From positions 6,485-70,484 of the forward strand of contig JAQUQN010000002.1 of assembly GCA_028716065.1 (NCBI GenBank): a DNA stretch of 64,000 bases, read 5' to 3'. A program made the position numbers and the translations under genes. The notes under the pieces are model-generated. The model was not told the origin of the DNA. It worked only from the letters and a program-made list of their open reading frames with translations, and ran no database searches. The stretch is from Candidatus Omnitrophota bacterium (lineage in GTDB: Bacteria > Omnitrophota > Gorgyraeia > 2-01-FULL-45-10). Position 1 is the first letter of the stretch. Every line of letters starts with the position of its first letter. Positions 12,567 through 33,776 of the stretch are shown one piece after another.

Positions 12567-13280
12567 ATGCCTGAGAAGGAAAATAAAGGCGCTTCTTACG
12601 CCAGGCAACTGGAAGCGATCTCGAAGGTCAGCAAGACCATCACATCCGGACTATATCTGGAAGAGATCCTGAAACTCATCGTAACCGTGACGGCGGAGAT
12701 AATGAACTCAAAGATATGTTCACTGATGCTGTTAGATGAGAAGAGCAACATGCTCGTGCTCAAGGCAACGCAGTCGATGAGCGAGGTCTATAATAAGAAG
12801 TCCCCCTTGAAGGTAGGCGAGGGCATTGCGGGCAAGGTCGCGCAACAGAACAGCCCTATGGCAATATATGATATAGCCAAGGAGGCGGAATATAAAAATA
12901 AGGACATAGCAAAAAAAGAAGGATTAAAATCCCTTCTATCCGTCCCTCTGGCAGTAAAGGGCAGGGTAATAGGCGTACTCAATAATTACACTTCTCACCC
13001 TCACAAGTTCATTAAAAGCGAAGTCGAACTTCTGACCACGGTAGCAAACCAGGCTGCCATAGTGATAGAAAACGCGGCGCTGATGCTAAAAGCGAAGGTC
13101 ATGCAGGACGAACTTGAGACCAGAAAAACGGTCGAAAGGGCCAAGGGGGTACTGATGCGCACCCAGGGCCTTTCCGAAGAGGAGGCGTTCAGAAAGATAC
13201 AGAAACAGAGCATGGACATGAGAAAAACGATGCGCGAGATTGCCGAGGCCATCCTGCTTCTCGAGAAGATGAAATCCTGA
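12567..13280 (+). CDS. GAF-ANTAR RNA-binding antiterminator-type regulator (paralog 1)
   Basis: GAF-like N-terminal two-thirds (GEGIAGKV...VPLAVKGRVIGVLN). C-terminal ANTAR signature (ERAKGVLMRTQGLSEEEAFRKIQKQSMDMRKTMREIAEAI). Confidence 0.85.
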   Translation: MPEKENKGASYARQLEAISKVSKTITSGLYLEEILKLIVTVTAEIMNSKICSLMLLDEKSNMLVLKATQSMSEVYNKKSPLKVGEGIAGKVAQQNSPMAIYDIAKEAEYKNKDIAKKEGLKSLLSVPLAVKGRVIGVLNNYTSHPHKFIKSEVELLTTVANQAAIVIENAALMLKAKVMQDELETRKTVERAKGVLMRTQGLSEEEAFRKIQKQSMDMRKTMREIAEAILLLEKMKS

Positions 13281-13315
13281 CCCATGTTAGGCAATAAAAA
13301 GTTGCTACTTTATGA

Positions 13316-13343
13316 TTGACAGAATCTGAAAATATGGTATACT
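13316..13343 (+). promoter_or_regulatory. Sigma70-type promoter (TTGACA-N16-TATACT, TGn) for nadE leader
   Basis: Exact -35. Followed by two leader terminators. Confidence 0.6.
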
Positions 13344-13361
13344 TATTATGAAGAGACAAGG

Positions 13362-13398
13362 ATGTCTTTCGGCAAAGTATGCTGAAAGACATTTTTTA
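13362..13398 (+). terminator. nadE leader terminator 1
   Basis: 13-bp stem ATGTCTTTCGGCA / TGCTGAAAGACAT (one G.U), loop AAGTA, then TTTTTT. Confidence 0.75.
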
Positions 13399-13408
13399 TA
13401 GACTAGGG

Positions 13409-13448
13409 CGTCTAGATCCGATATTGCGGATATAGGCGTTTTTTGTTT
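13409..13448 (+). terminator. nadE leader terminator 2
   Basis: CGTCTA-g-ATCCG-atattg-CGGAT-a-TAGGCG (11 bp, one G.U), then TTTTTTGTTT. Ends 12 nt before the nadE ATG. Confidence 0.55.
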
Positions 13449-13460
13449 ATAGGCGGTTTT

Positions 13461-15143
13461 ATGAAGAGAAATATGCGTTTTGCGATAGCCCAGATCGATT
13501 GTTGTGTAGGCGATTTTGAAGGCAACCTTAAGAAGATGACGGCCTGCCTTCAACAAGCCAAGCAGACGGGGGTGGATATTATAGCCTTTCCGGAACTTGC
13601 TGTGACGGGCTATCCCCCTGAAGATCTCCTCCTCAAGGCCAGATTCATAGATGAAAATCTGGAGACCTTGAGAAAGTTATCCAGGTCCGTAGAAGACGTG
13701 GTGGCCGTTATAGGTTTTGTCGACAGGATAGGCTCGGATATATATAATGCGGCAGCGGTAATATATAAAGGCAAGGTGCTAGGAAAATACTATAAGATGT
13801 TCTTGCCCAATTACGGCGTATTCGATGAGCACAGGTATTTCAGGCAGGGTAAGGAACCAATAGTATTCAAGTGGGGCGATCTGGTATTCGGTGTCAATAT
13901 ATGCGAGGACATATGGCATGAGGATGGGCCCACCCGCGCCCAGGCTTCTAGAGGCGTGAAGGTCATAATAAATATCAACGCCTCGCCTTATTACAGCGGA
14001 AGGATCAGGGAAAGGGAGGAGGCCGTAAAAAGCCAGGCAATAGAGAATAAGGTCCATGTGGTTTACGCCAATCTCGTAGGAGGACAGGACGAACTGATCT
14101 TCGATGGCCAGAGCATGATAGTGGATAATAACGGAAAGATAATAAAAAAGGCCGAGGCCTTCAAGGAAGACTTGCTTATTGCTGACCTGGAGATACCGGA
14201 AAACTCTGAAAGATTGAAGGACCTTTATATTACTATCGGTGATAGCGTACCTCCAAAAGATAAGCCTGGTCTGGTCCGGAAAGAGGTAAAGCAGTTAGAC
14301 CCTGTTAGCGAGGTATATGAAGCGCTGGCCCTGGGATTGAGGGACTATGTGACCAAAAACGGTTTTAAAAAAGTGGTTCTCGGATTAAGCGGAGGGATAG
14401 ACTCGTCCCTCGTTGCCTCCATAGCAACGGATGCCATGGGCAAGGACAATGTTATCGGAATTTACATGCCTTCCCGCTACTCTTCATCCGATTCGGAAAA
14501 TGACGCCAAAAAACTGGCTGCGAATCTAGGCATACAGCTTTTGACCATAAGTATCGAGCAGATATTTAAAATATCCCTGATGTCGCTGGACCCTAAATTT
14601 TCCGGACTGGCCAAAGATTCGACCGAAGAGAACCTTCAGGCGCGTATAAGGGGAAACATCCTGATGGCACTTTCAAATAAATTCGGGTGGCTGGTATTGA
14701 CAACCGGAAATAAATCGGAGATGAGCACGGGTTATTCTACATTGTATGGCGACATGGCAGGAGGACTGGCCGTTATAAAGGATGTCCCCAAAACTTTAGT
14801 TTATAAACTGGTTAAATACAGGAATACGGTGAGCGCTGTGATACCCGAGTCGGTGATCAAAAAGGAGCCCACGGCTGAACTGAAACACGACCAAAAGGAT
14901 AGAGACACCCTGCCTCCCTACGATGTGCTGGATCCTATCCTGAAGGCATATGTGGAGGATGATAAGGGACTGAAGGAAATAGTGGCATTGGGTTTTAACA
15001 AGGATACCGTATGCAAAGTCCTGAACATGGTCGATAGAAGCGAATATAAACGCCGCCAATCGCCTCCGGGTTTGAAGATAACCCCTAGGGCGTTCGGCAG
15101 GGACAGGAGAATGCCGGTTACCTCTAGATATAAAGAATATTAA
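13461..15143 (+). CDS. nadE: Glutamine-dependent NAD+ synthetase (CN-hydrolase + NAD synthetase domains)
   Basis: N-terminal nitrilase-like domain (FPELAVTGYPPEDL, NICEDIW). C-terminal SGGIDSS PP-loop. Start chosen at ATG 13461. Confidence 0.9.
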   Translation: MKRNMRFAIAQIDCCVGDFEGNLKKMTACLQQAKQTGVDIIAFPELAVTGYPPEDLLLKARFIDENLETLRKLSRSVEDVVAVIGFVDRIGSDIYNAAAVIYKGKVLGKYYKMFLPNYGVFDEHRYFRQGKEPIVFKWGDLVFGVNICEDIWHEDGPTRAQASRGVKVIININASPYYSGRIREREEAVKSQAIENKVHVVYANLVGGQDELIFDGQSMIVDNNGKIIKKAEAFKEDLLIADLEIPENSERLKDLYITIGDSVPPKDKPGLVRKEVKQLDPVSEVYEALALGLRDYVTKNGFKKVVLGLSGGIDSSLVASIATDAMGKDNVIGIYMPSRYSSSDSENDAKKLAANLGIQLLTISIEQIFKISLMSLDPKFSGLAKDSTEENLQARIRGNILMALSNKFGWLVLTTGNKSEMSTGYSTLYGDMAGGLAVIKDVPKTLVYKLVKYRNTVSAVIPESVIKKEPTAELKHDQKDRDTLPPYDVLDPILKAYVEDDKGLKEIVALGFNKDTVCKVLNMVDRSEYKRRQSPPGLKITPRAFGRDRRMPVTSRYKEY

Positions 15144-15187
15144 ACTCCTATCGCGTTGAAGAGATAGGATACTAAAAGGTGCGATGC

Positions 15188-15231
15188 AGCCCTTTATGCG
15201 CAAAGTAGGCGTGTAAAGGGCTTTAGTTTTT
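15188..15231 (+). terminator. nadE 3' terminator
   Basis: AGCCCTTTA / TAAAGGGCT, 9 bp, 17-nt loop, tail TTAGTTTTT. Confidence 0.65.
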
Positions 15232-15240
15232 ACAAGGCTG

Positions 15241-15789
15241 GTGATAAGAATGAACTTAAATTTCGAAACGCTCGTCAATAGAATAACGCCCACGCTGAAA
15301 AGGATAACGCACCGGCTTAACGGCCATTTTACCTTTTTCGACGACGATGATCTATACCAGGAGGCCGTGACATATCTATGGCCGCTCTTCCAAAGAGGCA
15401 GACTTGGCGACAAGACGGACAGTTATATCCTACAGGGCTGTTATTTTCATCTTAAAAATTATATACGCACCTCGATGGACAAGGCCAAATTGATAAGCAT
15501 CTATAAGATAATAGATGCTGACGAAACCGAGCTTGGCGCGGTCCTGGCCGCGAAGGAGACGCCGGATCCGGAAAATCTGGAATACAAGATATTACTGAAA
15601 GAATCGGATAGGATGGGCCTGACGGAAAAGGAAAGGCGCGTTATATCATATTCATTGGAGGGACTTACTACAAGAGAGATAGGCGACCGCCTCGGTGTAT
15701 CTCACGTAATGGTGCTAAAGATAAAGGGAAAGATCAAACATAAGCTGCGTATTTTCAGAAATGAATACCGGAGAGGTTACCAAAATTAG
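15241..15789 (+). CDS. Sigma-70 family (ECF-like) RNA polymerase sigma factor
   Basis: Region-2-like DDLYQEAVTYLW. Region-4 HTH LTEKERRVISYSLEGLTTREIGDRLGVSHVMV. Confidence 0.7.
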   Translation: MIRMNLNFETLVNRITPTLKRITHRLNGHFTFFDDDDLYQEAVTYLWPLFQRGRLGDKTDSYILQGCYFHLKNYIRTSMDKAKLISIYKIIDADETELGAVLAAKETPDPENLEYKILLKESDRMGLTEKERRVISYSLEGLTTREIGDRLGVSHVMVLKIKGKIKHKLRIFRNEYRRGYQN

Positions 15790-15814
15790 GCATTTTTTAC
15801 TTGTAGAATCGTAG
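15774..15814 (+). promoter_or_regulatory. Conserved 41-nt box, copy 1 (upstream of porin-amtB-glnK)
   Basis: AGGTTACCAaAaTtAgGCATTTTTTACTTGTAgAaTcGTAG. 34/41 identical to 18917-18957. Contains a TAnAnT -10-like hexamer. Overlaps the sigma-factor stop codon. Confidence 0.6.
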
Positions 15815-15849
15815 CCTTGGCAACAAAGGCTAAAGACACATAGAAGTGT
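15812..15849 (+). promoter_or_regulatory. Tandem leader hairpins (amtB operon leader)
   Basis: TAGCCTT-GGCAACA-AAGGCTA and, 3 nt later, ACAC-ATAGAA-GTGT. The second has a hexaloop with A at position 1 and G at position 4, as in ANTAR target loops. Confidence 0.45.
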
Positions 15850-15859
15850 AAAAATGACG

Positions 15860-15896
15860 AAGGCGTTTGGAAGATAAAACGCCTTTTATTTTTTTC
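15860..15896 (+). terminator. amtB-operon leader terminator a
   Basis: AAGGCGTTT-ggaagata-AAACGCCTT then TTATTTTTTT. The 5' arm carries ACGAAGGCGTT. Confidence 0.75.
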
Positions 15897-15908
15897 ATAG
15901 TGGACAGG

Positions 15909-15956
15909 GACGTCTATTCTAATCCGAGGAGGAAAGGAGAGGCGTCTTTTGTTTTT
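15909..15956 (+). terminator. amtB-operon leader terminator b (weaker)
   Basis: GACGTCT / AGGCGTC (7 bp, one G.U), 24-nt loop, tail TTTTGTTTTT. Confidence 0.4.
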
Positions 15957-15975
15957 ATATTAAAGGAGATTTTTA

Positions 15976-17292
15976 ATGAGTCTTAATACAAAAAACATAC
16001 TTAGCGGTCTTGTGGTGTCTCTCTTTATAATCATCAGTTCCTCTACGGCGGTATTTGCGAATGAGATAGAGGAGCTAAGAAATGAGATAAAGATGATGAA
16101 GGAGAAGCTTAGCGCCATGGAGGCGAGATTGCAGCAATCCGAGGCAAGGGCCGCAGACGCCGAAAAACCAAAAACTGGACCGGAAGGGACTATTACGGAC
16201 GCCATCACCTCGATTACTAAGGAGATAGAGTTTCATGGTTTTGTAGACACTTCCTATATATTCAATACGAATACGCCTGTACCTCCCAACCCCAGGACTA
16301 ACAACCTCCGGGTATTCGATACGGACGCCAATGGATTCATGCTCAACATGGCACAATTGAGCTTTGAAAAGACCGTATCGAAAGAATCACCCCTGGGCTT
16401 CAGGGTAGACCTGGATTTCGGCCAGGACGCAAAACTCATACACTCAAACGGCCTTGGCAATCCCGGAGACGAATTCGACCTTGAGCAGGCATATGCACAG
16501 TTCTGCATCCCATTCAGCCTTCCTTTAATGGATACGTTGAGTTTCAAGTTCGGCAAATTCGTCACGTTAATGGGCGCGGAAGTCATTGAATCCGTCAATA
16601 ACTGGAATTTTTCCAGGTCGTACCTTTTCGGTTACGCGATACCGTTCACGCATACGGGCTTGAGGGCCTATTATAAACCCTTCGCGGACATACCGGTCGA
16701 ATCGTACATCGGCATAGTCAATGGATGGGATCAGGTGGACGACCTTAACCGGGCCAAGACGCTGGAAGCCCAGATAGCCGTAACACCTAACGATAAGCTA
16801 TCGTTTTCGTTGGGAGGCATGTTCGGTCCGGAGAGGGCGGATTCCAATAAGGATTTCCGGGACCTTATAGATTTCGTCATAACCTACCAGCCTCTTGATA
16901 AGTTGACTTTAAAAGCCAACTATGACTACGGGTGGGAGAGGAATGGCACGTCGGCCTTCGCCGGCTATACAGACGGCAAGGACGCATCCTGGGATGGTGT
17001 TGCCGGTTACGCCAAATATGATATTTTCGACTGGTGGTCGATCGCCGGCCGCGGTGAATTTTTCCATGACAGGAACGGCGTAAGGACAGGCGTCCTTACA
17101 AGTTCTACGATGCCCATCTCCGACCTGGCTGTCTGGGAATTCACACTTACCAATGAATTCAAGATATTTAAAAATTTCATAGCGAGATTTGAATATAGGT
17201 TCGACAAGGCAAGCGGTCAGGCCTTCACGAAAAACAAGACTACCGCTAATAATCAAAGCACTATAGCTGCTGAAGTAATAACCAAGTTTTAA
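15976..17292 (+). CDS. Outer-membrane beta-barrel porin with N-terminal coiled coil
   Basis: Signal peptide, heptad-like segment, alternating beta-strand pattern and a C-terminal Phe. Sits first in the operon with amtB-glnK. Confidence 0.6.
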   Translation: MSLNTKNILSGLVVSLFIIISSSTAVFANEIEELRNEIKMMKEKLSAMEARLQQSEARAADAEKPKTGPEGTITDAITSITKEIEFHGFVDTSYIFNTNTPVPPNPRTNNLRVFDTDANGFMLNMAQLSFEKTVSKESPLGFRVDLDFGQDAKLIHSNGLGNPGDEFDLEQAYAQFCIPFSLPLMDTLSFKFGKFVTLMGAEVIESVNNWNFSRSYLFGYAIPFTHTGLRAYYKPFADIPVESYIGIVNGWDQVDDLNRAKTLEAQIAVTPNDKLSFSLGGMFGPERADSNKDFRDLIDFVITYQPLDKLTLKANYDYGWERNGTSAFAGYTDGKDASWDGVAGYAKYDIFDWWSIAGRGEFFHDRNGVRTGVLTSSTMPISDLAVWEFTLTNEFKIFKNFIARFEYRFDKASGQAFTKNKTTANNQSTIAAEVITKF

Positions 17293-17314
17293 TATAAGGA
17301 AGGAGGAAAATGCG

Positions 17315-18550
17315 ATGATCAATTCCGGAGATACTGCGTGGATATTGATTTCGACGGCGCTCGTCATGATGATGACTGCGCCGGGTTTAGCGTTCTTTTA
17401 CGGTGGGCTGGTGCGGAGGAAAAACGTCCTCGCCACCATGATGCAGTCTTTCTTCGTACTGTGCCTGATCAGCATCCAGTGGATCTTGTGGGGCTATAGT
17501 CTTGCCTTTGGTCCCGATAAGGGCCATTTCATAGGTAGTCTCGCGTGGTTCGGTCTGAAAGGAGTGGGGATGGCGCCAAATCCTGATTACGCCGCGACCA
17601 TTCCGCATCTATTATTTATGGCATATCAGATGATGTTCGCAGTGATCACGCCCGCCCTGATAACAGGGGCTTTTGCTGAAAGAATGAAATTCTCCGCATA
17701 CGTCGTCTTTACCTTATTATGGGCAACTTTCGTATATGACCCCGTCTGCCATTGGGTATGGGGTACAGGCGGATGGTTAAAAGAGATGGGGGCCCTGGAC
17801 TTCGCAGGCGGCACAGTGGTCCATGTCTCATCAGGCATAGCTGCCCTCGTATGCGCGCTCGTATTAGGAAAACGGCGAGGATATGGCAATGAACCGATGC
17901 CTCCTCATAACTTGCCATTAACCGTCCTTGGGGCCGCGCTATTGTGGTTCGGATGGTTCGGATTTAATGCTGGTAGCGCATTAGGGGCCAACGAATTAGC
18001 CGTGACGGCTTTCATCGCTACAAATACGGCGGCTGCTGCGGCGGCACTTACATGGATGGCCATTGAATGGAACACTATCGGAAAGCCTACCATACTTGGC
18101 GGGGCTACGGGCGCTGTGGCGGGGCTTGTCGCAATAACGCCTGCCGCCGGCTTCGTCTCTCCGATATCCGCCATCTTCATAGGGATCATAGTAGGCCTGG
18201 TATGCTATACAGCTGTCGCCATCATTAAATTAAAACTTTCTTATGATGACAGTCTCGATGCTTTTGGCGTTCATGGTGTCGGCGGAGCAGTGGGTGCCCT
18301 GGTAACTGGGCTTTTCGCGCAGAAGATAATAAATCCCGGAGGGAGCAACGGGCTATTTTTCGGCAACCCTTCACAGCTAGCCACTCAAGCCATCGGTGTC
18401 ATAGCCACCATGGCATATTCGATCGCCGTAACATTCATCTTACTCAAAGTCCTTGATGCGGTCATGGGGCTGCGTGTTTCCGAAGAAGACGAGGTGGCCG
18501 GACTCGACATAACGCAACACGAGGAAAGCGCCTATACATTGTTAGACTAG
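17315..18550 (+). CDS. amtB: Ammonium transporter
   Basis: 411 aa polytopic protein with Amt signatures (DFAGGTVVHVSSG, FGVHGVGG). Confidence 0.95.
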   Translation: MINSGDTAWILISTALVMMMTAPGLAFFYGGLVRRKNVLATMMQSFFVLCLISIQWILWGYSLAFGPDKGHFIGSLAWFGLKGVGMAPNPDYAATIPHLLFMAYQMMFAVITPALITGAFAERMKFSAYVVFTLLWATFVYDPVCHWVWGTGGWLKEMGALDFAGGTVVHVSSGIAALVCALVLGKRRGYGNEPMPPHNLPLTVLGAALLWFGWFGFNAGSALGANELAVTAFIATNTAAAAAALTWMAIEWNTIGKPTILGGATGAVAGLVAITPAAGFVSPISAIFIGIIVGLVCYTAVAIIKLKLSYDDSLDAFGVHGVGGAVGALVTGLFAQKIINPGGSNGLFFGNPSQLATQAIGVIATMAYSIAVTFILLKVLDAVMGLRVSEEDEVAGLDITQHEESAYTLLD

Positions 18551-18562
18551 GAGGAGGTAGAA

Positions 18563-18904
18563 ATGAAACTGATAATCTCTATAATACAGCCGCATAGGCT
18601 TGAAAAGGTGCTGGAAGAATTGAACAAATCGGGAATCAGCCTGAGGACCGTATCCAACGTCCTGGGTTGCGGCAGGCAGAAAGGCCACACCGAGGTATAT
18701 CGCGGGAGGAAAGAGACGGGTAACCTTCTTAAAAAGGTACGCCTCGAAATTGCCGTCAATGAAGATTTCGTGGAACCTACGGTCAGGGCCATCATAAAAG
18801 GGGCAAAGACCGGAGAGATCGGAGACGGGAAGATATTTATAGCCGATCTGGCCGAATGCATAAGGATACGGACCGGGGAGAGGGGCGGCGAGGCGATAGG
18901 GTAA
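18563..18904 (+). CDS. glnK: P-II nitrogen regulatory protein
   Basis: 113 aa with T-loop [12 protein letters not shown] (Tyr51 retained) and DGKIFI. Directly downstream of amtB. Confidence 0.9.
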
Positions 18905-18916
18905 ACTTTAAAAAAT

Positions 18917-18957
18917 AGGTTACCAGAGTAACGCATTTTTTACTTGTATAGTTGTAG
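18917..18957 (+). promoter_or_regulatory. Conserved 41-nt box, copy 2 (upstream of glnA)
   Basis: AGGTTACCAgAgTaAcGCATTTTTTACTTGTAtAgTtGTAG, starting 13 nt after the glnK stop. Confidence 0.6.
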
Positions 18958-18967
18958 GGTATTAATA

Positions 18968-18983
18968 GGCACGCAGTAGTGCC
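18968..18983 (+). promoter_or_regulatory. Leader hairpin GGCAC-GCAGTA-GTGCC (glnA leader)
   Basis: 5-bp GC-rich stem with a hexaloop. Preceded by TA (TAGGCA word). Confidence 0.5.
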
Positions 18984-19010
18984 CCAAAAATAGGCAAACT
19001 TAAAGAACAG

Positions 19011-19066
19011 AGGCGTTCATTTTGGTCAGCGAGTGATTTGACCGAGTGAGCGCCTTTTTATCTTTT
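19011..19066 (+). terminator. glnA leader terminator
   Basis: 16-bp stem AGGCGTTCATTTTGGTC / GACCGAGTGAGCGCCT (three G.U, one bulge), then TTTTTATCTTTT. Ends 28 nt before the glnA ATG. Confidence 0.7.
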
Positions 19067-19094
19067 ATGCCCCACCACTAAAGGAGGAGTAAAC

Positions 19095-20603
19095 ATGAAA
19101 AAGAAGAAAGAGAAAAAACTAACAGACGTGAGGACAAAGAACCCGCTCATAAACGGCTCTTTCGATGAAAAGGCCGCCCGGGAAGTGATGAAGATGATCA
19201 AGGAGAAGAAGATACAGATCCTTGATCTTAAATTCAATGACCTGCCGGGCCTGTGGCAGCATTTCTCCATACCCGCATCGGAGCTTACGGAGATGGATGA
19301 CCTGACACGCTCTATCTGGGTGGACGGCATAGGGTTCGACGGCTCATCCATACGCGGCTTCCAGAAGATCCAGGAGTCGGACATGATCCTGATCCCTGAC
19401 CCTGCGACAGCCGTAATAGACCCTGTTTGCGAAGTGCCGACATTAAGCGTCATATGCGATATCTATGACCCGCTTACCAGAAAAGCATATACCCGAGACC
19501 CTAGATATATCGCGAAAAAGGCGGAAAAGTACCTGAAGGCATCCGGTATTGCCGACAATGTATACTTCGGGCCGGAGGCTGAGTTCTTTCTCTTCAATGA
19601 CGTCCGCTTTGACCAGACGGAAAACTCGGGATACTATTTTATAGACTCAGTCGAGGCTGACTGGAATACTGGAAAATCCGAAAATCCTAACCTGGGCTAT
19701 AAGATACGGTTCAAGGAAGGATATTTCCCAGTACCTCCGCACGACTCGCTACAGGACCTTCGCAGTAAGATGATCCTAAAGATGATAGAGGCCGGGATCC
19801 CCGTTGAAGTGCACCACCACGAAGTGGCCACAGCAGGACAATGCGAAATCGATATGAAGTTCGACACGTTGACAAAGATGGGCGATAACCTTTTGCTTTA
19901 CAAATATATCATAAAGAACATGGCCAGGAAGAACAACATGGTGGCCACGTTCATGCCCAAGCCGCTCTTTGCGGATAACGGCTCAGGCATGCACTGCCAC
20001 CAGAGCCTGTGGAAAAACGGCGTAAACCTTTTTTACGACAAGAACGGATACGCGCTCCTGAGCCAGACGGCCAAATACTACATAGGGGGGCTTTTAAAAC
20101 ACGCCAAGAGCCTCATGGCGTTCTGCGCGCCGACGACAAATTCTTACAAACGCCTGGTGCCGGGATACGAAGCGCCCGTAAACCTTGTTTACTCTGCCCG
20201 CAACCGGTCAGCGGCGGTAAGGATACCGATGTATTCCGACAGCCCCAAATCGAAAAGGATAGAGTTCAGGCCGCCCGATCCGTCCTGCAACGCCTACATA
20301 GCGTTCAGCGCAATGTTGATGGCGGGCCTTGACGGGATACAGCATAAGATCGATCCCGGCGAACCCGCAGACCAGGATCTATTCGAATTGAATGAGGAAG
20401 AACTGGCGAAGATCCCAACCGTGCCGTCATCTCTGCGCAGGGCTATAGATGCCCTGGAAGAAGACCATGACTACCTTCTCAAGGGCGGCGTCTTCACAAA
20501 AGACGTTATCGATGTATGGCTCGAATATAAACGCAAAAGAGAAATAGACACGGTGAGGATGCGCCCGCATCCATACGAGTTTTATCTATATTTTGATATT
20601 TAA
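19095..20603 (+). CDS. glnA: Glutamine synthetase type I
   Basis: GSI motifs ([32 protein letters not shown]). The adenylylation-site Tyr is replaced (DLFEL). Strong RBS aaaggagg. Confidence 0.95.
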
Positions 20604-20668: not shown

Positions 20669-20854
20669 ATGGATGACAACCTACCCATTTACAGAACGAT
20701 CATAGCGCAGGTTGAAAAACCGCTCATAGAGATGGCCCTGGAGAGAACGAGCGGCAATCAGATCAGGGCCGCCGAACTGTTAGGGATCAATCGTAATACG
20801 ATCCGCACCAAGATAAAAAAACTCGGCATCGACGTCAAGAGATGGAAGGTATGA
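20669..20854 (+). CDS. Stand-alone Fis/NtrC-C-terminal-type HTH protein (61 aa)
   Basis: [26 protein letters not shown] is an HTH_8-type motif. Its stop overlaps the gltB start (ATGA). Confidence 0.65.
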
Positions 20855-23800: not shown

Positions 23801-25389
23801 CCAGGTATACCACGCAAGGCGTCACCCTCATATCGCCGCCTCCGCACCACGACATATATTCCATCGAGGACCTTGCGCAGCTCATATTTGACCTGAAGAA
23901 CGTCAATCCTAAAGCCCGAATAAGCGTTAAGCTTGTATCGGAGATAGGGGTGGGCACGGTCGCCGCGGGTGTCGCCAAAGGTCATGCCGACATGATACTG
24001 ATCTCGGGCGGAGACGGGGGAACCGGCGCATCGCCTCTCAGTTCCATAAAACACGCGGGCCTCCCGTGGGAACTCGGCCTTTCGGAGACACATCAAACTC
24101 TGGTCCTGAACGACCTGCGCAGCAGGGTCAGGCTGCAGACGGACGGACAGATGCGCACGGGCCGCGACATCGCCATCGCCGCCTTGCTGGGAGCGGAAGA
24201 GTTTGGCTTCTCTACCGCGGTACTGATAGTCCTCGGATGTGTGATGTTGAGGCATTGCCACCTGAATAATTGTTCCGTGGGAGTCGCCACGCAGGACGCC
24301 ATCCTGCAGAATAGGTTCAGGGGAAGGCCTGAATATATAATCAACTACTTCTATTTCGTCGCGCAAGAACTGAGAGAGATAATGGCCGGGCTGGGTATTC
24401 GCCGCGTTGACGACATGATCGGCAGGACGGATCTATTGCTGGTCGATAAGACGGCCTTGACCTGGAAGACCAAAGGGCTGGATTTTTCAAGAATGCTGTA
24501 CAAGGCCGGAACGAAGAGGCCGGACACCAGATACCATGTTATGCCTCAGAAGCCTGCAATGCACGGGGAATTGGATTCAGAACTCATCAAACTCTCAAAA
24601 GATGCGATAGGCAATAGAGCACCTGTAAAACTCTCCATGGGCATAAAAAATAGCAATAGGACTGCCGGCGCCATGTTGAGCGGAGAGGTGTGCAGGGTAC
24701 ATGGGGAAGGCGGCCTGCCTGATGATACCGTATACTGCAAATTCAAGGGTGTAGCCGGCCAGAGCTTCGGCGCCTTTCTCTCCAAAGGAATAACATTTGA
24801 ACTCGAAGGCATGGCGAACGATTATGTGGGCAAGGGTATCTCCGGCGGGAAGATCATAATATATCCGGACAGGAGAGCGGGTTATGACGCCAGCAGGGGC
24901 ATCATCATCGGAAATACGACATTTTACGGCGCCATAAGCGGTGAGGCATATATAAGGGGGACCGCGGGAGAAAGGTTTTGCATAAGGAATTCGGGGCTGA
25001 ATGCCGTCGTAGAAGGCACCGGTGACCATGGATGCGAATACATGACCGGAGGAAGGGTTGTCATTCTGGGAAAAACTGGAAGGAACTTTGCCGCTGGGAT
25101 GTCTGGCGGCATCGCGTATGTTTACGATCCGAAGAGAGATTTTAAAGATAGGTGCAACATGGAGATGGTAACCCTGGAAAGCATAAATTCCGACGATGAG
25201 ATGACGATCGGCGAGCTGCTATCCAACCACCACAGGTTCACCGGCAGTACATTGGCCAGAGAGATACTGGACGACCTTAAATCCAGGTTAAAGAGCTTTA
25301 TCAAGGTCATGCCGATAGAATACAAGCGTATCCTGGAAAGCAAAGAGCTAGAGGAAGATTTGAATCTCGTAGAGGTGTCAGATGGGTGA
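20851..25389 (+). CDS. gltB: Glutamate synthase large subunit
   Basis: About 1510 aa. N-terminal Ntn Cys (HDSCGVGF), FMN domain and C-terminal GXGXG domain. Start set at the ATG of the ATGA overlap. Confidence 0.95.
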
Positions 25390-26827
25390 TCCGAGAGGAT
25401 TTTTGAAAGTAAAGCGGGAAGGCTCTCCATATAGACCCGTATGTGAACGCGTTAAGGATTACAAAGAAGTATCGGCGCCGAGAGACGACGAACGTTCCAA
25501 GGAACAGTCTTCGCGTTGCATGGATTGCGGAACGCCCTTCTGCCACTGGGCCTGCCCGGTCGGTAATTATATCCCGGAATGGAACGACGCGATGTTCCAC
25601 GGCCACTGGAAAAAGGCCATAGACCTACTGCATGCGACGAACAATTTTCCGGAGATAACGGGGCGGTTGTGCCCGGCGATGTGCGAATACGCCTGCGTAT
25701 TGGGTATAAACGACGACCCTGTTACGGTAAGAGAGAACGAACTGGCCATCATAGAGCATGGGTTTAGACAGGGCATCATAAAGGCGTCTGGGCCCGCGAA
25801 GCGCAGCGGAAAACGTATCGCCATAATAGGCTCGGGCCCTGCAGGGCTGGCCTGCGCCGACCAATTAAATAAAGCGGGACACGAGGTGACGGTCTATGAA
25901 AAAGACGACAGGGCCGGAGGAATATTACGATACGGCATACCGGACTTTAAACTGGAAAAATGGGTCCTGGACAGGCGGCTCGATATTTTAAAAAAAGAAG
26001 GCGTAAAACTCATAACCTCGGTCAATGTTGGAACCGATATCACCATTTCCGAACTGCGGAAAGGTTTTGACGCCGTCTGCCTGGCCGGAGGCAGCCGCGT
26101 TCCGAGAGACCTGAAGATCGAAGGAAGGGAATTGAAAGGTATACATTTCGCCATGGACTTCCTGGTGCAGGCGAACAGGATGGTAGCTGGAGAAAAGATA
26201 CTGGAAGATAAATTCATAGACGCTAAGGGCAAAAGGATAGTCGTAATAGGCGGAGGCGATACGGGATCTGACTGCGTCGGTGTATCGCACCGTCACGGCG
26301 CAAGCTGCGTAGTCCAGATCGAACTGTTACCTCAGCCGTCAGAATCCCGCACCGGGGAATATAACTGGCCGAAATATCCGCTTCTCCTCAAGAGATCCTC
26401 CAGCCATGAAGAAGGGGGCGAGCGCAACTGGTCGATACTCACGAAGCGGCTTATCGGAGTAGACGGACGCGTGAAAAGATTGTCCTGCGTCCGCGTCAGT
26501 TTTGACCAAAAAGACGAGCGAGGCCGTCCGCTCATGAGGGAACTACCCGGAAGCGAGTTCGAGATAGAGGCCGATCTGGTAATATTGGCTATGGGTTTTG
26601 TACACCCGGAGCACGACATCCTGCTCGATGCGCTCGGCGTAAAACTGGATCCGTACGGAAATGTGGCCACGGATGACAAGTACATGACTTCGGCCAAAGG
26701 CGTATTCTCGGCCGGCGACATGAGAAGGGGGCAATCCCTGATCGTCTGGGCCATATCGGAAGGCCGCCGCTCAGCCCACGCCATCGATAAATACCTTATG
26801 GGTTCAAGCAACCTGCCGGTAGTCTAA
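25382..26827 (+). CDS. gltD: Glutamate synthase small subunit (NADPH)
   Basis: Cys clusters (CMDCGTPFC, CPAMCEYAC) and the dinucleotide fold IAIIGSGPAGLACA. Confidence 0.95.
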   Translation: MGDPRGFLKVKREGSPYRPVCERVKDYKEVSAPRDDERSKEQSSRCMDCGTPFCHWACPVGNYIPEWNDAMFHGHWKKAIDLLHATNNFPEITGRLCPAMCEYACVLGINDDPVTVRENELAIIEHGFRQGIIKASGPAKRSGKRIAIIGSGPAGLACADQLNKAGHEVTVYEKDDRAGGILRYGIPDFKLEKWVLDRRLDILKKEGVKLITSVNVGTDITISELRKGFDAVCLAGGSRVPRDLKIEGRELKGIHFAMDFLVQANRMVAGEKILEDKFIDAKGKRIVVIGGGDTGSDCVGVSHRHGASCVVQIELLPQPSESRTGEYNWPKYPLLLKRSSSHEEGGERNWSILTKRLIGVDGRVKRLSCVRVSFDQKDERGRPLMRELPGSEFEIEADLVILAMGFVHPEHDILLDALGVKLDPYGNVATDDKYMTSAKGVFSAGDMRRGQSLIVWAISEGRRSAHAIDKYLMGSSNLPVV

Positions 26828-26852
26828 TCCCCCTTAAAACCTCCATTATTAT

Positions 26853-26881
26853 TTGCCAATATTCCAAAAGATTAGTATAAT
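26853..26881 (+). promoter_or_regulatory. Sigma70-type promoter (TTGCCA-N17-TATAAT)
   Basis: The -10 ends 10 nt before ATG 26892, so the transcript would be leaderless or nearly so. Confidence 0.5.
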
Positions 26882-26891
26882 AAAACCTGTC

Positions 26892-28246: not shown

Positions 28247-28250
28247 CAGC

Positions 28251-29078
28251 ATGAAAATAAAACGGTTGGTTTTAATGCGCCAAATATCACAGACCGTTTT
28301 TTTCTTTTTATTTATCTACATCATCTGGTCGGCCACTTACCAATTAAAAGGGCCTCTGTCTCCCAGGTTAATTTTTGACGCCGATCCTCTCCTGACATTA
28401 TCCGCATCCATAGGCAGCCGCGTGATCATCCCCGGCATCTCATTGTCCCTCATCATCTTATTTATGACAGCTGTCCTCGGAAGATTCTTCTGCGGCTGGA
28501 TATGCCCCCTGGGTTCGACCATGGACCTGATCGCATCCTTTAAAAAAAGAAAGGCCGGTATTCCAGATTCGAAGAATAAAAAATTGAGAAGGCCGAAATT
28601 TTACATATTCGGCCTGATAGGCCTGTCGGCCGTGATGGGTACTCAGATAGCATGGTTGCTTGACCCGCTGGTGATCACAGAGCGTTTCCTGTCACTGACC
28701 ATCAGGTCCGCCTGCTCTTTACTGGGGAAGGGGGCTAATTTCTCGCCATACTCCATCATAACGCTTATATTCTTCGCGGTTATTTGCTCAATGGCGATAT
28801 TCTTAAGCCGTTTCTGGTGCCGGGCCATCTGCCCGTTAGGAGCGTTATATGCGGTCATGGCGCGTTTTTCCATATTAAGGCGTATTGTGGTGGAATGCAA
28901 GGATTGCGGCAACTGTAAAAGTTCGTGCAGGATGGGTGCTATAAAGGATGACGCCAGTTATGTAAAGTCAGAATGCATCCTTTGCATGGACTGTATCTAT
29001 GACTGCTCTTCCAACTCGACCAGCTTCGGCTGGGGCGATAAAAAGACCCGCAATTTTCTACTTGACAAAACACACTAA
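28251..29078 (+). CDS. Polytopic 4Fe-4S binding membrane protein (NapH/MauN-like)
   Basis: Repeated CxxxCP(L)G motifs (FCGWICPLG, FWCRAICPLG) plus two ferredoxin motifs (CKDCGNCKSSC, CILCMDCIYDC). Confidence 0.7.
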   Translation: MKIKRLVLMRQISQTVFFFLFIYIIWSATYQLKGPLSPRLIFDADPLLTLSASIGSRVIIPGISLSLIILFMTAVLGRFFCGWICPLGSTMDLIASFKKRKAGIPDSKNKKLRRPKFYIFGLIGLSAVMGTQIAWLLDPLVITERFLSLTIRSACSLLGKGANFSPYSIITLIFFAVICSMAIFLSRFWCRAICPLGALYAVMARFSILRRIVVECKDCGNCKSSCRMGAIKDDASYVKSECILCMDCIYDCSSNSTSFGWGDKKTRNFLLDKTH

Positions 29079-29090
29079 TGTTGCTATATT
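29062..29090 (+). promoter_or_regulatory. Sigma70-type promoter (TTGACA-N17-TATATT) for nfnAB-gdhA leader
   Basis: The -35 lies inside the 3' end of the upstream CDS. Followed by a leader terminator. Confidence 0.6.
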
Positions 29091-29119
29091 ATATCATCAA
29101 TATTATGTTAAAAGGGGAC

Positions 29120-29159
29120 AAAGACGTCCGCTAAAAAAAGCGGCGTCTTTTTTTATTTT
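29120..29159 (+). terminator. nfnAB-gdhA leader terminator
   Basis: AAAGACG-t-CCGC-taaaaaaa-GCGG-CGTCTTT (11 bp, one bulge), then TTTTATTTT. About 25 nt after the promoter -10. Confidence 0.75.
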
Positions 29160-29199
29160 CCAATGCATAAAAAATAGGCAACTGCCATTTCTTTAAAAA

Positions 29200-30026
29200 A
29201 TGAAGATACTGAAAAAAGAGATACTTGCCGATCACGAAGGGACGAGGCTGGTTAGGATGGAGCTCCACTCCCCGCTAATTGCCAAAAAGGCGTCAGCGGG
29301 CCAATTTGTCGTCCTCATGGCCGATGAGAAAGGCGAGAGGATACCTCTTACCATAGTTGAGGCCGACAGGGAAAAGGGGTCCATAGCCATCATCTTCCAG
29401 GAGGTGGGCCATACTACAAAACTCCTGGGAAAGATGGAAGCGGGCAAATCGCTATATTCCTTAACGGGGCCCCTGGGACATGCGACAGAGATAAGGAAAT
29501 TCGGGAAGGTTATCCTCGTGGGAGGAGGGGTCGGCATAGCAGAGATTTACCCCGTGGCAAGGGCCTTAAAAGCAAGCGGCAACCGTGTCGTGACCATACT
29601 CGGCGCCAGGACAAAAGCGTTATTAATACTGGAAAAAGAGCTCAAAGAGACATCCGATGAAATCTACATAACTACCGATGACGGATCTTACGGGTTAAAG
29701 GGTTTCACGACATCGGTACTGGAGGGCCTCCTCTCTAAAGGAAATTACGATCTCGTCTATTCAGTAGGTCCTATTCCAATGATGAAGAACTCTTCTTCAG
29801 TGACCAGGCGTTTTAATGTCAGGACGCTCGTCTCGCTGAATGCCCTGATGGTGGACGCAACGGGCATGTGCGGGTGCTGCAGGGTCGCAGTCGGGGGTAA
29901 GGTAAAGTTCAGCTGCGTTGACGGGCCGGAATTTGACGCGCACCAGGTCGACTGGGAGGAACTGGATAAGAGAAACAGGGTATACACGGACAAAGAAAAA
30001 CATATCTGCAAACTGAATAATTTAAA

Positions 30027-30030
<4 letters not shown>
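29200..30030 (+). CDS. nfnA: NfnA / SudB-type ferredoxin-NADP+ oxidoreductase subunit alpha (FAD, 2Fe-2S)
   Basis: PyrK-like fold with DATGMCGCCRV...FSCVDGPEF. Overlaps the nfnB start by 4 nt. Confidence 0.8.
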
Positions 30031-32800
<2,770 letters not shown>

Positions 32801-32823
32801 CGGAGGGCGGTAAAAAATAATAC

Positions 32824-32852
32824 TTGACAAAATAGACAAATCGTGGTATAAA
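32824..32852 (+). promoter_or_regulatory. Sigma70-type promoter (TTGACA-N17-TATAAA, TGn) for GAF-ANTAR-2 leader
   Basis: Lies 24 nt after the gdhA stop. Followed by three terminators. Confidence 0.6.
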
Positions 32853-32869
32853 TAGTTGATTAAAAATTA

Positions 32870-32886
32870 GGCACAAAGTCAGTGCC
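32870..32886 (+). promoter_or_regulatory. Leader hairpin GGCAC-AAAGTCA-GTGCC (GAF-ANTAR-2 leader)
   Basis: Same stem as 18968-18983 and a related loop (AGT-A). Preceded by TTA (TAGGCA word). Confidence 0.5.
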
Positions 32887-32902
32887 ATAATGAGAAAGGA
32901 CG

Positions 32903-32933
32903 AAGGCGTTCGAAAGAACGCCTTTCTCTTTTT
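32903..32933 (+). terminator. GAF-ANTAR-2 leader terminator 1 (may also end the gdhA transcript)
   Basis: AAGGCGTTC-GAAA-GAACGCCTT then TCTCTTTTT. The 5' arm carries ACGAAGGCGTT. Confidence 0.65.
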
Positions 32934-32973
32934 AGACAACCTTTCTCTTTCAACGCGGAAAACCTGGATAAAG

Positions 32974-33018
32974 ACGTCCGATCTGGCAGTATCATAATGC
33001 CGGAGAGGGCGTTTTTTT
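32974..33018 (+). terminator. GAF-ANTAR-2 leader terminator 2
   Basis: ACGTCCGATCTGGC / GCCGGAGAGGGCGT (12 pairs including two G.U, tandem G-A internal loop), then TTTTTTT. The 5' arm carries AAAGACGTCCG. Confidence 0.7.
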
Positions 33019-33025
33019 ATGAACG

Positions 33026-33070
33026 AAGGCGTTCTGTGCCGATAAACGGCGCATTGCGCCTTATTTTTTT
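33026..33070 (+). terminator. GAF-ANTAR-2 leader terminator 3
   Basis: Outer AAGGCG/CGCCTT plus inner TGTGCCG-ataaa-CGGCGCA, then TTATTTTTTT. The 5' arm carries ACGAAGGCGTT. Ends 10 nt before ATG 33081. Confidence 0.7.
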
Positions 33071-33080
33071 AGGTGACGCC

Positions 33081-33776
33081 ATGTCATACGAAGAACAGAT
33101 AAAGGCATTATCACGGATAAGCAGGGCCATAGCATCCGATCAATACCTGGAAGATATCCTACGCCTCATAGTCACGGTAACCGCGGAGATGATGGGTTCG
33201 AACATATGTTCGCTCATGCTGCTGGATGAGAACAGGAATGAGCTCATCATAAGGGCGACTCAAAGCGTAAGCGATGCATACAATAAAAAACCACCAGTAA
33301 AAATAGGCGAAGGCATAGCAGGCAAGGTATTCAAGGAGAAGGTGCCGGTAAAGGTCCTTGACGTGCGCAAAGATAAAAATTACATAAGCAGGAGCATAGC
33401 GAAGAAAGAAGGGCTGTGCTCGCTCCTGTGTGTACCCCTGATAGTCAAGAATAAGGCCATAGGGGTCCTAAATTGCTACACATCGAAACCCCGCGATTTC
33501 AGCGAGACGGAGACGAATATCCTGGCGACCATCGCCAATCAGGCGGCGGTAGCCATAGAGAATACGGAATTGATGGTCAGGAGCAAGGTCATACAGGAAG
33601 AGCTGGAGGTACGTAAGAAGATAGAACGCGCCAAGGGCATCATAATGAAGAGGGAGGGATTGAAAGAGGAAGAGGCCTATTTAAAACTCAGGAAATACAG
33701 TATGGATAGCCGTAAGACGATGCGCGAAATAGCGGATGCCATCATTCTTACGGAGGATTTAAGCAAGAAATTATAA
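33081..33776 (+). CDS. GAF-ANTAR RNA-binding antiterminator-type regulator (paralog 2)
   Basis: Roughly 55% identical by eye to 12567-13280. ANTAR signature ERAKGIIMKREGLKEEEAYLKLRKYSMDSRKTMREIADAI. Start at ATG 33081, downstream of the leader terminators. Confidence 0.85.
   Translation: MSYEEQIKALSRISRAIASDQYLEDILRLIVTVTAEMMGSNICSLMLLDENRNELIIRATQSVSDAYNKKPPVKIGEGIAGKVFKEKVPVKVLDVRKDKNYISRSIAKKEGLCSLLCVPLIVKNKAIGVLNCYTSKPRDFSETETNILATIANQAAVAIENTELMVRSKVIQEELEVRKKIERAKGIIMKREGLKEEEAYLKLRKYSMDSRKTMREIADAIILTEDLSKKL

Follow-up and report, generated by a model that had tools for sequence, protein, structure and literature searches.

The window described here is a stretch of 64,000 nucleotides (64 kb) from a member of the Omnitrophota, a bacterial phylum that has not been cultured and is made up mostly of ultra-small cells. 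It contains a cluster of genes for ammonium, glutamine and glutamate metabolism, together with two genes, GAF-ANTAR-1 and GAF-ANTAR-2, whose products join a GAF domain to an ANTAR domain. The properties of the two proteins and a comparison of the leaders of the cluster with those of related loci suggest that the cluster is probably a regulon of ammonium and glutamine metabolism controlled by ANTAR-type transcription attenuation. The genes of the cluster are the following.

11600-12565, + strand, radical SAM gene (Pfam; function unassigned)
12567-13280, + strand, GAF-ANTAR-1, 237 amino acids (Pfam GAF_2 and ANTAR)
13461-15143, + strand, nadE, glutamine-dependent NAD synthetase (Pfam NAD_synthase and CN_hydrolase)
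15250-15789, + strand, sig4, a divergent sigma-70 family gene resembling those of extracytoplasmic function (ECF) sigma factors, 179 amino acids (TIGR02937, Pfam Sigma70_r4)
15976-18904, + strand, porin (BBP2)-amtB-glnK operon, glnK at 18563-18904 (Pfam)
19095-20603, + strand, glnA (Pfam)
20669-20854, + strand, small open reading frame (ORF) with a Fis-type helix-turn-helix (HTH), 61 amino acids (Pfam/profile matches)
20842-26827, + strand, gltB and gltD (Pfam/profile matches)
29200-32800, + strand, nfnA-like gene, nfnB/gltD-like gene and gdhA, the last at 31460-32800 (Pfam)
33081-33776, + strand, GAF-ANTAR-2, 231 amino acids (Pfam GAF_2 and ANTAR)
33801-35393, + strand, gene with a Glu_synthase domain, directly 3' of GAF-ANTAR-2 (Pfam)

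The stop codon of the radical SAM gene overlaps the start of GAF-ANTAR-1. The nadE ORF opens at a TTG at position 13443, and its likely start is the ATG at 13461. Three small genes of redox or unknown function occupy the interval between gltD and nfnA. The pairing of GAF-ANTAR-2 with the Glu_synthase-domain gene is also kept in one of the related loci considered below (L012).

The two GAF-ANTAR genes had been recognized in a preliminary description of the window, and both ORFs proved to be real. GAF-ANTAR-1 matches the Pfam profiles GAF_2 and ANTAR with E-values of 1.9e-21 and 3.5e-22, and GAF-ANTAR-2 does so with E-values of 7.4e-24 and 7e-20. Their ANTAR scores of 78.4 and 71 bits, against a cutoff of 27.3 bits, place both proteins above the curated threshold of the ANTAR family PF03861, to which they belong by this measure. 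The two share 58% identity over 226 aligned residues. GAF-ANTAR-1 is 100% identical to an NCBI protein from an Omnitrophota metagenome-assembled genome, and thousands of its homologues, with 75-80% identity, are from this phylum. Among Protein Data Bank entries, the ANTAR domains align with Rv1626, NasR, EutV and AmiR. An AlphaFold2 (AF2) model of GAF-ANTAR-1, with a predicted local distance difference test score (pLDDT) of 85, consists of a GAF domain (residues 30-148), a continuous helix of 51 residues (150-200) and the ANTAR bundle, whose helices span residues 150-200, 204-218 and 222-236. The modelled protein has the architecture of a long helix joined to a three-helix bundle that is typical of ANTAR domains.

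The preliminary description had also placed nine terminators in leaders of the cluster, between a promoter or conserved box and the start codon. Folding gives all nine a stable hairpin with a U run after it, at minimum free energies of -14.9 to -29.2 kcal/mol, and each is located 3' of a promoter-like element. The terminators, and the promoters of the sigma70 type that precede some of them, are as follows.

13316-13343, + strand, sigma70-type promoter of the nadE leader, TTGACA-16-TGgTATACT (11 of 12 positions, extended -10)
13358-13396, + strand, nadE leader terminator 1 (-21.1 kcal/mol, U run)
13405-13442, + strand, nadE leader terminator 2 (-17 to -18.6 kcal/mol)
15859-15886, + strand, porin leader terminator 1 (by folding)
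15903-15953, + strand, porin leader terminator 2 (-20.8 kcal/mol)
19009-19057, + strand, glnA leader terminator (-27 to -29 kcal/mol)
29062-29090, + strand, sigma70-type promoter of nfnAB-gdhA, of the TTGACA type (sequence match)
29120-29150, + strand, nfnA leader terminator (by folding)
32824-32852, + strand, sigma70-type promoter of GAF-ANTAR-2, TTGACA-17-TGgTATAAA (read from the sequence)
32898-32929, + strand, GAF-ANTAR-2 leader terminator 1 (by folding)
32970-33016, + strand, GAF-ANTAR-2 leader terminator 2 (by folding)
33026-33062, + strand, GAF-ANTAR-2 leader terminator 3 (by folding)

The porin and glnA leaders have a conserved box of a non-sigma70 kind instead (positions 15775 and 18918). 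Every stem contains one to seven G.U pairs, which had been taken earlier as making the hairpins specific to the + strand. This holds for eight of the nine, which fold more stably on the + strand than as the reverse complement. A generic terminator finder was too permissive within coding sequence, especially on the antisense strand, and was not used for statistics.

It had been observed earlier that neither an NtrC-type regulator nor a convincing -24/-12 promoter is visible in the window, and this is borne out. The sigma54 consensus TGGCAC-N5-TTGCW, with up to two mismatches allowed, has 13 matches in the 64 kb where 21 are expected. Control of the leaders by sigma54 was rejected, as the matches are fewer than expected by chance. 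No NtrC-type gene was found in the window. The sole response regulator is of the OmpR type and belongs to the only kinase/regulator pair, which lies 10 kb away on the opposite strand.

ANTAR targets were defined for EutV, NasR and AmiR as two hexaloop hairpins, both with a G at loop position 4 (G4), the second of which (P2) overlaps the terminator (PMC3369931). The preliminary description did not detect such a site and considered that the target might be non-canonical. In fact, a hexaloop is present in every one of the nine terminators and the target is essentially canonical. The 5' arm of the terminators opens with a 14-nucleotide element, RRAC[NNNGRC]GTYY, which can form a stem of 4 base pairs closed by a hexaloop with G4. 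The upstream hairpin (P1) accompanies P2 in three leaders, those of the porin operon, glnA and GAF-ANTAR-2, and the other leaders have single hexaloops. The sites are listed below, including a tenth in the leader of pyrG.

13354-13367, + strand, hexaloop AGAC[AAGGAT]GTCT, nadE terminator 1 (13.2 bits)
13400-13413, + strand, hexaloop AGAC[TAGGGC]GTCT, nadE terminator 2 (18.5 bits)
15836-15849, + strand, P1 hexaloop ACAC[ATAGAA]GTGT, porin (starts 19 nucleotides before the start of P2, 5-nucleotide linker)
15855-15868, + strand, P2 hexaloop TGAC[GAAGGC]GTTT, porin terminator 1 (17.4 bits)
15902-15915, + strand, hexaloop GGAC[AGGGAC]GTCT, porin terminator 2 (14 bits)
18968-18983, + strand, P1 hexaloop GGCAC[GCAGTA]GTGCC, glnA (22-nucleotide linker to P2)
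19005-19018, + strand, P2 hexaloop GAAC[AGAGGC]GTTC, glnA (24.4 bits)
29116-29129, + strand, hexaloop GGAC[AAAGAC]GTCC, nfnA (20.9 bits)
32870-32886, + strand, P1-like hairpin GGCAC[AAAGTCA]GTGCC, GAF-ANTAR-2 (7-nucleotide loop, G at position 4)
32898-32911, + strand, hexaloop GGAC[GAAGGC]GTTC, GAF-ANTAR-2 terminator 1 (19.8 bits)
32966-32979, + strand, hexaloop GGAT[AAAGAC]GTCC, GAF-ANTAR-2 terminator 2 (by pattern and folding)
33021-33034, + strand, hexaloop GAAC[GAAGGC]GTTC, GAF-ANTAR-2 terminator 3 (24.7 bits, the best match in the window)
35616-35629, + strand, hexaloop AAAC[AATGGC]GTTT, pyrG leader (21.7 bits, absent from the training set)

All ten sites that lie at a hairpin of their leader have the 4-base-pair stem, the hexaloop and G4, and six of them have A at loop position 1. 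P1 was not found at nadE, nfnA, pyrG or any second or third terminator in the window. The pyrG site lies in the 5' arm of a 42-nucleotide hairpin (35620-35661), downstream of a sigma70 promoter (35557-35584), and pyrG-carA-carB may be part of the same regulon.

The pattern RAYRRRGRCGTY has seven matches in the 64 kb, where 1.1 are expected. Each of the seven is on the + strand at one of these terminators, and none of 100 shuffled sequences reached seven matches. A covariance model, R1, was built from the sites and run on the window with its filters off; nine of its ten best matches are + strand leaders of nitrogen genes. The matches at 62692 and, on the - strand, at 50441 and 44841 are inside ORFs without a leader context and are probably due to chance. 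None of the Rfam families matched anywhere in the window at gathering thresholds. The hexaloop motif is therefore not covered by any Rfam model. A permissive Rfam search of the region 12.5-34 kb gave only two matches, which is the chance level. Two other short sequences were considered. The hexamer TAGGCA is not enriched (36 copies against 28.5 expected). The box AAAWTAGGYW, a pattern chosen post hoc, occurs eight times against 1.4 expected, with five copies in nitrogen leaders (15783, 18912, 18987, 29171 and 32864), and its place among promoter, P1, P2 and terminator varies from leader to leader.

Folding calculations give P2 alone an energy of +1.2 to -4.0 kcal/mol, compared to -13.5 to -30.5 kcal/mol for the terminators. 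Enforcing P2 costs the terminator, at every site, its 7-13 basal pairs beside the U tract and leaves only the apical hairpin. P2 and the intrinsic terminator are mutually exclusive at every site. Because the terminators are far more stable than P2, termination is the predicted default, and read-through would require a factor that stabilizes P2, as in the ANTAR mechanism.

A terminator that follows nadE and precedes the sigma gene (15188-15222, + strand) has no P2-type site, and its apical loop is AAAGTA(G). This terminator is kept in three related loci, L008 (~12675-12715), L009 (~5190-5230) and L043 (~12490-12530). The apical loops in the four genomes, AAAGTA, ATAGAA, ACAGAC and AAGGAT, all begin with A and have a G as their fourth base. 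Here the ANTAR-like loop caps the terminator rather than competing with it.

One genome per species was scanned for relatives of GAF-ANTAR-1, which yielded 43 loci, nearly all of them from Omnitrophota. The gene order is kept: radical SAM gene, GAF-ANTAR, nadE and/or the sigma gene, porin, amtB, glnK, glutamine synthetase and gltB. Sites were defined by the core AC-NNNGNN-GT followed by a terminator. The window and the 43 loci together contain 69 such sites that read in the direction of the genes and 9 that read in the opposite direction, and a looser criterion gives 96 and 15, respectively. The covariance model has 111 matches on the + strand of the 43 loci versus 10 on the - strand. Of 88 sites, 79 are intergenic and located 5' of nadE, the sigma gene, porin/amtB, glnA/glnN, fis-gltB or GAF-ANTAR. 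A typical leader of the relatives is arranged as promoter, P1, a linker of 3-8 nucleotides, P2 with terminator 1, a second P2 with terminator 2, and the ribosome-binding site. If the leaders control these genes, relatives that keep the genes should keep the hairpins too, as the preliminary description had pointed out; sites and terminators are indeed kept at orthologous leaders across the 43 loci. The P2 site orthologous to that of glnA at 19005, for example, is kept in at least eight genomes.

The stem of the hexaloop hairpin covaries. Its pair 2/13 is G-C at 28 sites, A-U at 27 and G.U at 7, and is unpaired at 6. Pair 1/14 is formed at 52 of the 69 sites, and the notional pairs just beyond the stem are formed at only 41-45%. 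Among 68 distinct sites, 91.9% of the cells are paired versus 40-44% in slid controls. The number of compensatory cells is 40, compared to 10.7 in shuffles, none of 500 of which reached it. Covariation is also present in an alignment of orthologous leaders, a comparison that had been proposed earlier: in eight trimmed glnA/glnN leader sequences, the terminator is conserved in all eight genomes and has three compensatory pairs. At most sites, stem positions 1-2 are outside the terminator helix, and the covariation of the hairpin is therefore not accounted for by the terminator alone.

When 4-base-pair hexaloop hairpins at terminator 5' arms were collected without an anchor sequence, the AC..GT class was the commonest on the gene strand (51 of 425), and on the opposite strand it does not rank with the top classes. 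Of the 51 hairpins, 47 have a G at loop position 4. The loop consensus across the loci is N-N-A-G-R-C, and two classes of P2 loop were seen, GGC-GTT and GAC-GTC, which might conceivably correspond to the two paralogs. Furthermore, a P1 with a G4 hexaloop is present 16-60 nucleotides upstream of 44 of the 69 sites, compared to 15 of 69 control windows. Most of these upstream hairpins have the form (G/A)CAC[..G..]GTG(C/T) and start 17-38 nucleotides before P2.

These observations bear on whether the GGCGTT/GACGTC repeats have any regulatory meaning. They could be a terminator 'dialect', spread by cassette duplication or lineage preference, with regulation taking place at the promoters through the ECF-like sigma factor, the Fis-type protein or PII. 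The nucleotides of the hexaloop also pair in the terminator stem, so that their conservation is partly explicable by the terminator, and an alternative-sigma promoter already provides a regulatory route. Yet position 2 of the stem, which is mostly outside the terminator, covaries with position 13 inside it; G4 is near-invariant even in the unanchored hairpins; and the P1 hexaloops are enriched upstream although they are part of no terminator. The motif is absent from other terminators of the window, namely those at 15188 (after nadE), 45380 (in a carA leader), 5406 and 7163. In addition, tandem terminators after strong promoters would be senseless without antitermination. A mere dialect is therefore quite improbable.

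The leaders thus appear to be ANTAR targets, and the two GAF-ANTAR proteins are the natural candidates to act on them. In the EutV-RNA structure, the sole base-specific contact is made with the flipped-out G4, which is stacked on Y164 and held by R142, K149 and E160 (PMC8934654). M172 of EutV is essential, and the same study redefined the minimal ANTAR site as one hexaloop (PMC8934654). Residues R186, K187, K193, E204, F208 and M216 of GAF-ANTAR-1 correspond to R142, K143, K149, E160, Y164 and M172 of EutV, and GAF-ANTAR-2 has a Tyr at the Y164 position. Among 26 family members, the G4-contact positions show little or no variation.

It is unlikely, if somewhat less so than the dialect, that the terminators are real attenuators operated by another factor, such as a REC-ANTAR protein encoded elsewhere, a different RNA-binding protein or NusA/NusG, and that the GAF-ANTAR proteins have other targets. 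Only 64 kb of the genome are in view. ANTAR domains of varied architectures bind very similar RNAs (PMC7496416), and the motif does not name the protein that acts on it; the GAF-ANTAR proteins themselves were uncharacterized when the motif was defined (PMC3369931). Against this, a GAF-ANTAR gene is directly 5' of the first motif-bearing leader in most loci, and the leader of GAF-ANTAR-2 itself contains three sites. All G4-contact residues are kept in both proteins, and a Pfam search of the window found no ANTAR gene, of this or a second kind, other than these two.

The GAF domains point to the nature of the signal. They match the profiles NF008283 (PtsP) with an E-value of 5e-20 and TIGR01817 (NifA) with an E-value of 1e-15. 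The top Protein Data Bank matches, by sequence as well as by fold, are the PtsP GAF domain 3trc (TM-score 0.82) and 3ci6. The GAF domain of NifA binds 2-oxoglutarate. That of PtsP (EI-Ntr) binds glutamine (PMC4848567). Since the GAF domains are PtsP/NifA-like and the targets all have ammonium, glutamine or glutamate functions, the signal is most likely glutamine and/or 2-oxoglutarate, and the probable ON state would be that of low glutamine or high 2-oxoglutarate.

There is a small chance that the proteins bind the hairpins but respond to something other than nitrogen, such as a cyclic nucleotide, redox state or haem, or that they act on translation or mRNA stability in the manner of mycobacterial ANTAR RNAs. 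GAF domains bind many ligands, and Lcd1-cAMP and phosphodiesterase (PDE) GAF domains are also among the structural matches. The activity of NasT is modulated by c-di-GMP (PMC10783516), and ANTAR control of translation was reported in actinobacteria (bioRxiv 10.1101/660928). Nevertheless, the closest GAF domains by both sequence and structure are those of PtsP and the NifA type, the regulon consists solely of enzymes and transporters for ammonium, glutamine and glutamate, and the hairpins overlap terminators, not ribosome-binding sites.

Antitermination of the leaders by the GAF-ANTAR proteins is probably accompanied by a second tier of control, a sigma factor that the preliminary description had missed. 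The sig4 product matches TIGR02937 (sigma70-ECF) with an E-value of 7e-11 over profile positions 3-162 of 165. Its Pfam Sigma70_r4 match is above threshold and Pfam region 2 was not detected in it; a profile of the sig4 family matches regions 2 and 4 of FliA. The AF2 model has a pLDDT of 71.8 and a disordered linker. The top 20 Foldseek matches of this model are all sigma factors, mostly ECF ones, among them SigH, SigL, sigmaE and SigW, and the modelled protein has the sigma2 + sigma4 fold. The NCBI name of the protein is sigma-70 family sigma factor, and it has about 1,300 homologues. Two candidate promoters, identified by conservation of their boxes, could be its targets in the window.

15775-15805, + strand, candidate alternative promoter GGTTACCA-N16-ACTTGTA of porin-amtB-glnK
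18918-18948, + strand, candidate alternative promoter GGTTACCA-N16-ACTTGTA of glnA

The ACTTGTA-side box GCATTTTTTACTTGTA had been considered as a -24/-12 promoter, for which its spacing is unfit, and was reread as the -10-side half of GTTACCA-N16-ACTTGTA. The full element has 36 copies across the loci, all on the gene strand and with invariant spacing, 5' of the porin/amtB, glnA/glnN and fis-gltB leaders. It is present in 18 of the 20 loci that have the sigma gene and in 1 of the 24 that lack it (Fisher's p = 3e-9; window and 43 loci). Among loci with at least 5 kb of downstream sequence, the presence and absence of the box are split 13/1 with the sigma gene and 1/11 without it. Loci L003 and L007 have neither the sigma gene nor the box, and their glnA leaders have sigma70-type promoters instead. 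Thus, sig4 probably drives the two-box promoters of porin-amtB-glnK and glnA.

The sigma gene appears to be an attenuation target as well. In most relatives it is positioned behind a sigma70 promoter, a dual hexaloop and two terminators; in the window it follows nadE, which is itself behind two terminators. Control of the cluster is therefore probably exerted by sigma plus antitermination, not by antitermination alone. As a separate observation, the glnN leaders of L014 (~16730-16745), L017, L020, L023 and L033 have an extended -10 promoter (TGTGGTAGAAT-like) 3' of the attenuator, which might provide basal transcription independently of the regulated promoter.

The central proposal of the preliminary description, ANTAR antitermination gating the nitrogen leaders, finds support, to the extent that sequence analysis can give it, in the G4 hexaloops, their covariation, their conservation in 43 loci, the G4-contact residues and the PtsP/NifA-like GAF domains. 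The proposed circuit would operate as follows. By default, as the folding indicates, the one to three intrinsic terminators of each unit would form spontaneously and transcription would stop. The 14 nucleotides at or just before the 5' arm of a terminator could refold as the weak 4-base-pair hairpin RRAC[NNAGRC]GTYY. By analogy with EutV and GnfR, an active GAF-ANTAR dimer would grip P2 through the flipped-out G4. With P2 held, the 7-13 basal pairs by the U tract would be gone and RNA polymerase would read through. Where P1 exists, the protein might be recruited to it, pass to P2 and then to the site of the next terminator. The GAF domain would sense the nitrogen status and transmit the signal through the 51-residue helix to the ANTAR bundle.

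GAF-ANTAR-1 is presumably co-expressed with the housekeeping-type genes upstream of it. GAF-ANTAR-2, which is behind three terminators of its own type, is a candidate for autoregulation and would provide positive feedback. GAF-ANTAR would allow the sigma factor to be made, and the sigma-dependent transcripts would again need GAF-ANTAR at their terminators. Judging from co-occurrence and adjacency, sigma and antitermination would then form a coherent feed-forward loop.

Several points weigh against this interpretation. Lengthening the P1-P2 linker of a EutV target by 20 nucleotides abolished antitermination in vitro (PMC8934654), and many of the sites described here have no P1, while single-hexaloop antitermination is unproven. 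Loop position 1 is A at 35, T at 18 and G at 16 of the 69 sites, whereas the classical motif has a conserved A there. The inner AC/GT pairs are invariant partly through their use as the search anchor, and the loci are phylogenetically non-independent, so that the counts overstate the number of independent events. The hairpin of the pyrG leader has a weak U tract (UAUCAUUU). The score of sig4 against TIGR02937, 42.0 bits, is 0.9 bit under the NCBIfam cutoff of 42.9, and it is co-occurrence and adjacency that suggest the link between sigma factor and box. The genome outside the window may hold other ANTAR proteins, NtrC or sigma54.

ANTAR regulation of nitrogen genes is already known from Geobacter and has been predicted in Desulfotomaculum and Pelobacter. 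In Geobacter sulfurreducens, antitermination by the GnfK/GnfR system was demonstrated by genetics and RNA binding (PMC2995071). Its leader terminators likewise precede nitrogen genes (glnK, amtB and nif), and the site at the 5' edge of the terminator, CAGGCAANGGCGCC, is GGC[AANGGC]GCC, with a loop almost identical to the NNAGRC found here (PMC2995071). However, GnfR is a response regulator that is phosphorylated by a histidine kinase and functions under a sigma54/GnfM tier. The Omnitrophota proteins have a one-component GAF input in place of REC, no adjacent kinase and no -24/-12 promoters, and the upper tier is apparently ECF-like.

The EutV/EutW system of Enterococcus faecalis has the same G4 hexaloops, with P2 over the 5' arm of the terminator and several terminators per regulon (PMC3369931, PMC8934654), and the G4-contact residues of EutV are kept in both GAF-ANTAR proteins. 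It differs in its REC input and in its targets, the ethanolamine genes. Furthermore, EutV targets have a conserved A as the first loop base, which only about half of the sites here share; many of the present sites either have no P1 or have it 50-56 nucleotides away. Klebsiella NasR (NIT-ANTAR), like the present proteins, is a one-component regulator with a ligand-binding domain fused to ANTAR and acts on the leader terminator of nitrogen-assimilation genes (PMC7496416). Its NIT domain senses nitrate/nitrite and it controls a single operon, whereas the GAF-ANTAR proteins would control at least six transcription units.

ANTAR nitrogen regulons were predicted in Desulfotomaculum acetoxidans, D. 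reducens and Pelobacter by Ramesh et al. (2012, PMC3369931). As described there, the ANTAR RNAs are in several units for PII, ammonium transport and glutamine/glutamate synthesis, and D. acetoxidans has 13 sites in six units (PMC3369931). These organisms belong to other phyla, their sites were found with a dual-hairpin model, and no associated sigma tier was described for them (PMC3369931). PtsP (EI-Ntr) and NifA have the closest GAF domains, but their outputs are a PEP phosphotransferase and an AAA+ sigma54 activator, respectively, instead of ANTAR. The sigma factor resembles ECF (group 4) proteins in having two domains, sigma2 + sigma4, in about 180 amino acids, and in a candidate promoter with two boxes at fixed spacing. 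It differs from them in that no anti-sigma gene was seen, in that the boxes GTTACCA / ACTTGTA are unlike the usual AAC / CGT, and in that its expression is apparently gated by ANTAR-type terminators, not autoregulated.

What appears to differ here is the one-component GAF input, the loops without a conserved A at position 1, the single-hexaloop terminators, their tandem arrays, the self-amplifying paralog and the ECF-like tier in place of sigma54. GAF-ANTAR proteins were uncharacterized in the 2012 paper that defined the motif (PMC3369931), and we found no functional study of them in the literature since then. It is possible, if on balance doubtful, that the circuit as a whole is undescribed elsewhere, that is, GAF-ANTAR sensing of glutamine/2-oxoglutarate through often single hexaloops, in a feed-forward arrangement with an ANTAR-gated ECF-like sigma factor and with a self-amplifying paralog.

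The locus offers a testable pairing of a GAF-ANTAR protein with an RNA site, a likely ligand class and target genes. If correct, this would give a first function and ligand class to a widespread protein architecture. The dozens of natural overlaps between a single hexaloop and a terminator bear on the question, raised by the EutV structure, of whether one hexaloop suffices; they could represent the first example from nature of co-transcriptional antitermination at a single hexaloop. Nitrogen control in this uncultured phylum might combine an alternative sigma factor with attenuation, and elements of NtrBC/sigma54 are not visible in the window. Both the RNA model and the promoter box are directly applicable to the annotation of Omnitrophota genomes and metatranscriptomes.

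Some further features of these loci are of interest. GAF-ANTAR-1 is directly preceded by the radical SAM gene in the window and in 13 related loci, and always so in the clade. The Fis-type ORF (HTH_8, 20669-20854) overlaps the start of gltB. In relatives it is longer, with 127-151 amino acids (L014, 19087-19518; L020, 16740-17123) and an N-terminal extension that has no Pfam match, and it has its own sigma-box promoter, P1, P2 and terminator. The protein looks like the C-terminal domain of NtrC minus the AAA+ part. In L019, a gene at 4520-6373 encodes an amino-acid permease fused to a C-terminal PII domain (617 amino acids), and it is preceded by a sigma-box promoter and two ANTAR-type terminators.

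A small Cys-rich ORF of about 45 amino acids (MKKKGLCSNCSNHGNCIFLKEPPVLQCEEY...) is located at 35405-35542, 3' of the Glu_synthase-domain gene and 5' of the pyrG promoter. The nitrogen cluster is directly followed by a region of about 20 kb (35681-55707) that consists mostly of glutamine amidotransferase genes (pyrG, carA/carB twice, purF, guaA and purL), broken by DUF1846 and by a divergent two-component pair of the OmpR type. The leader of the second carA (45240-45415) has a sigma70 promoter, an ORF of 17 codons (MENMNVSRKGVIKIQGK) and a strong terminator (45380-45408). The stem of this terminator contains CCAGGGGAGG, which is reminiscent of PyrR sites, and is without an ANTAR motif. This leader is thus an attenuator of another type, which provides a negative control within the window. 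Finally, two copies of a GC-rich hairpin, (G)GAACCCCACGGGCTTACGCCCGTGGTTC(C), are nearly identical and lie 52 kb apart, at 7322-7351 and 59926-59953 (- strand); this hairpin could be a terminator present in repeated form or an element of the REP-like kind.

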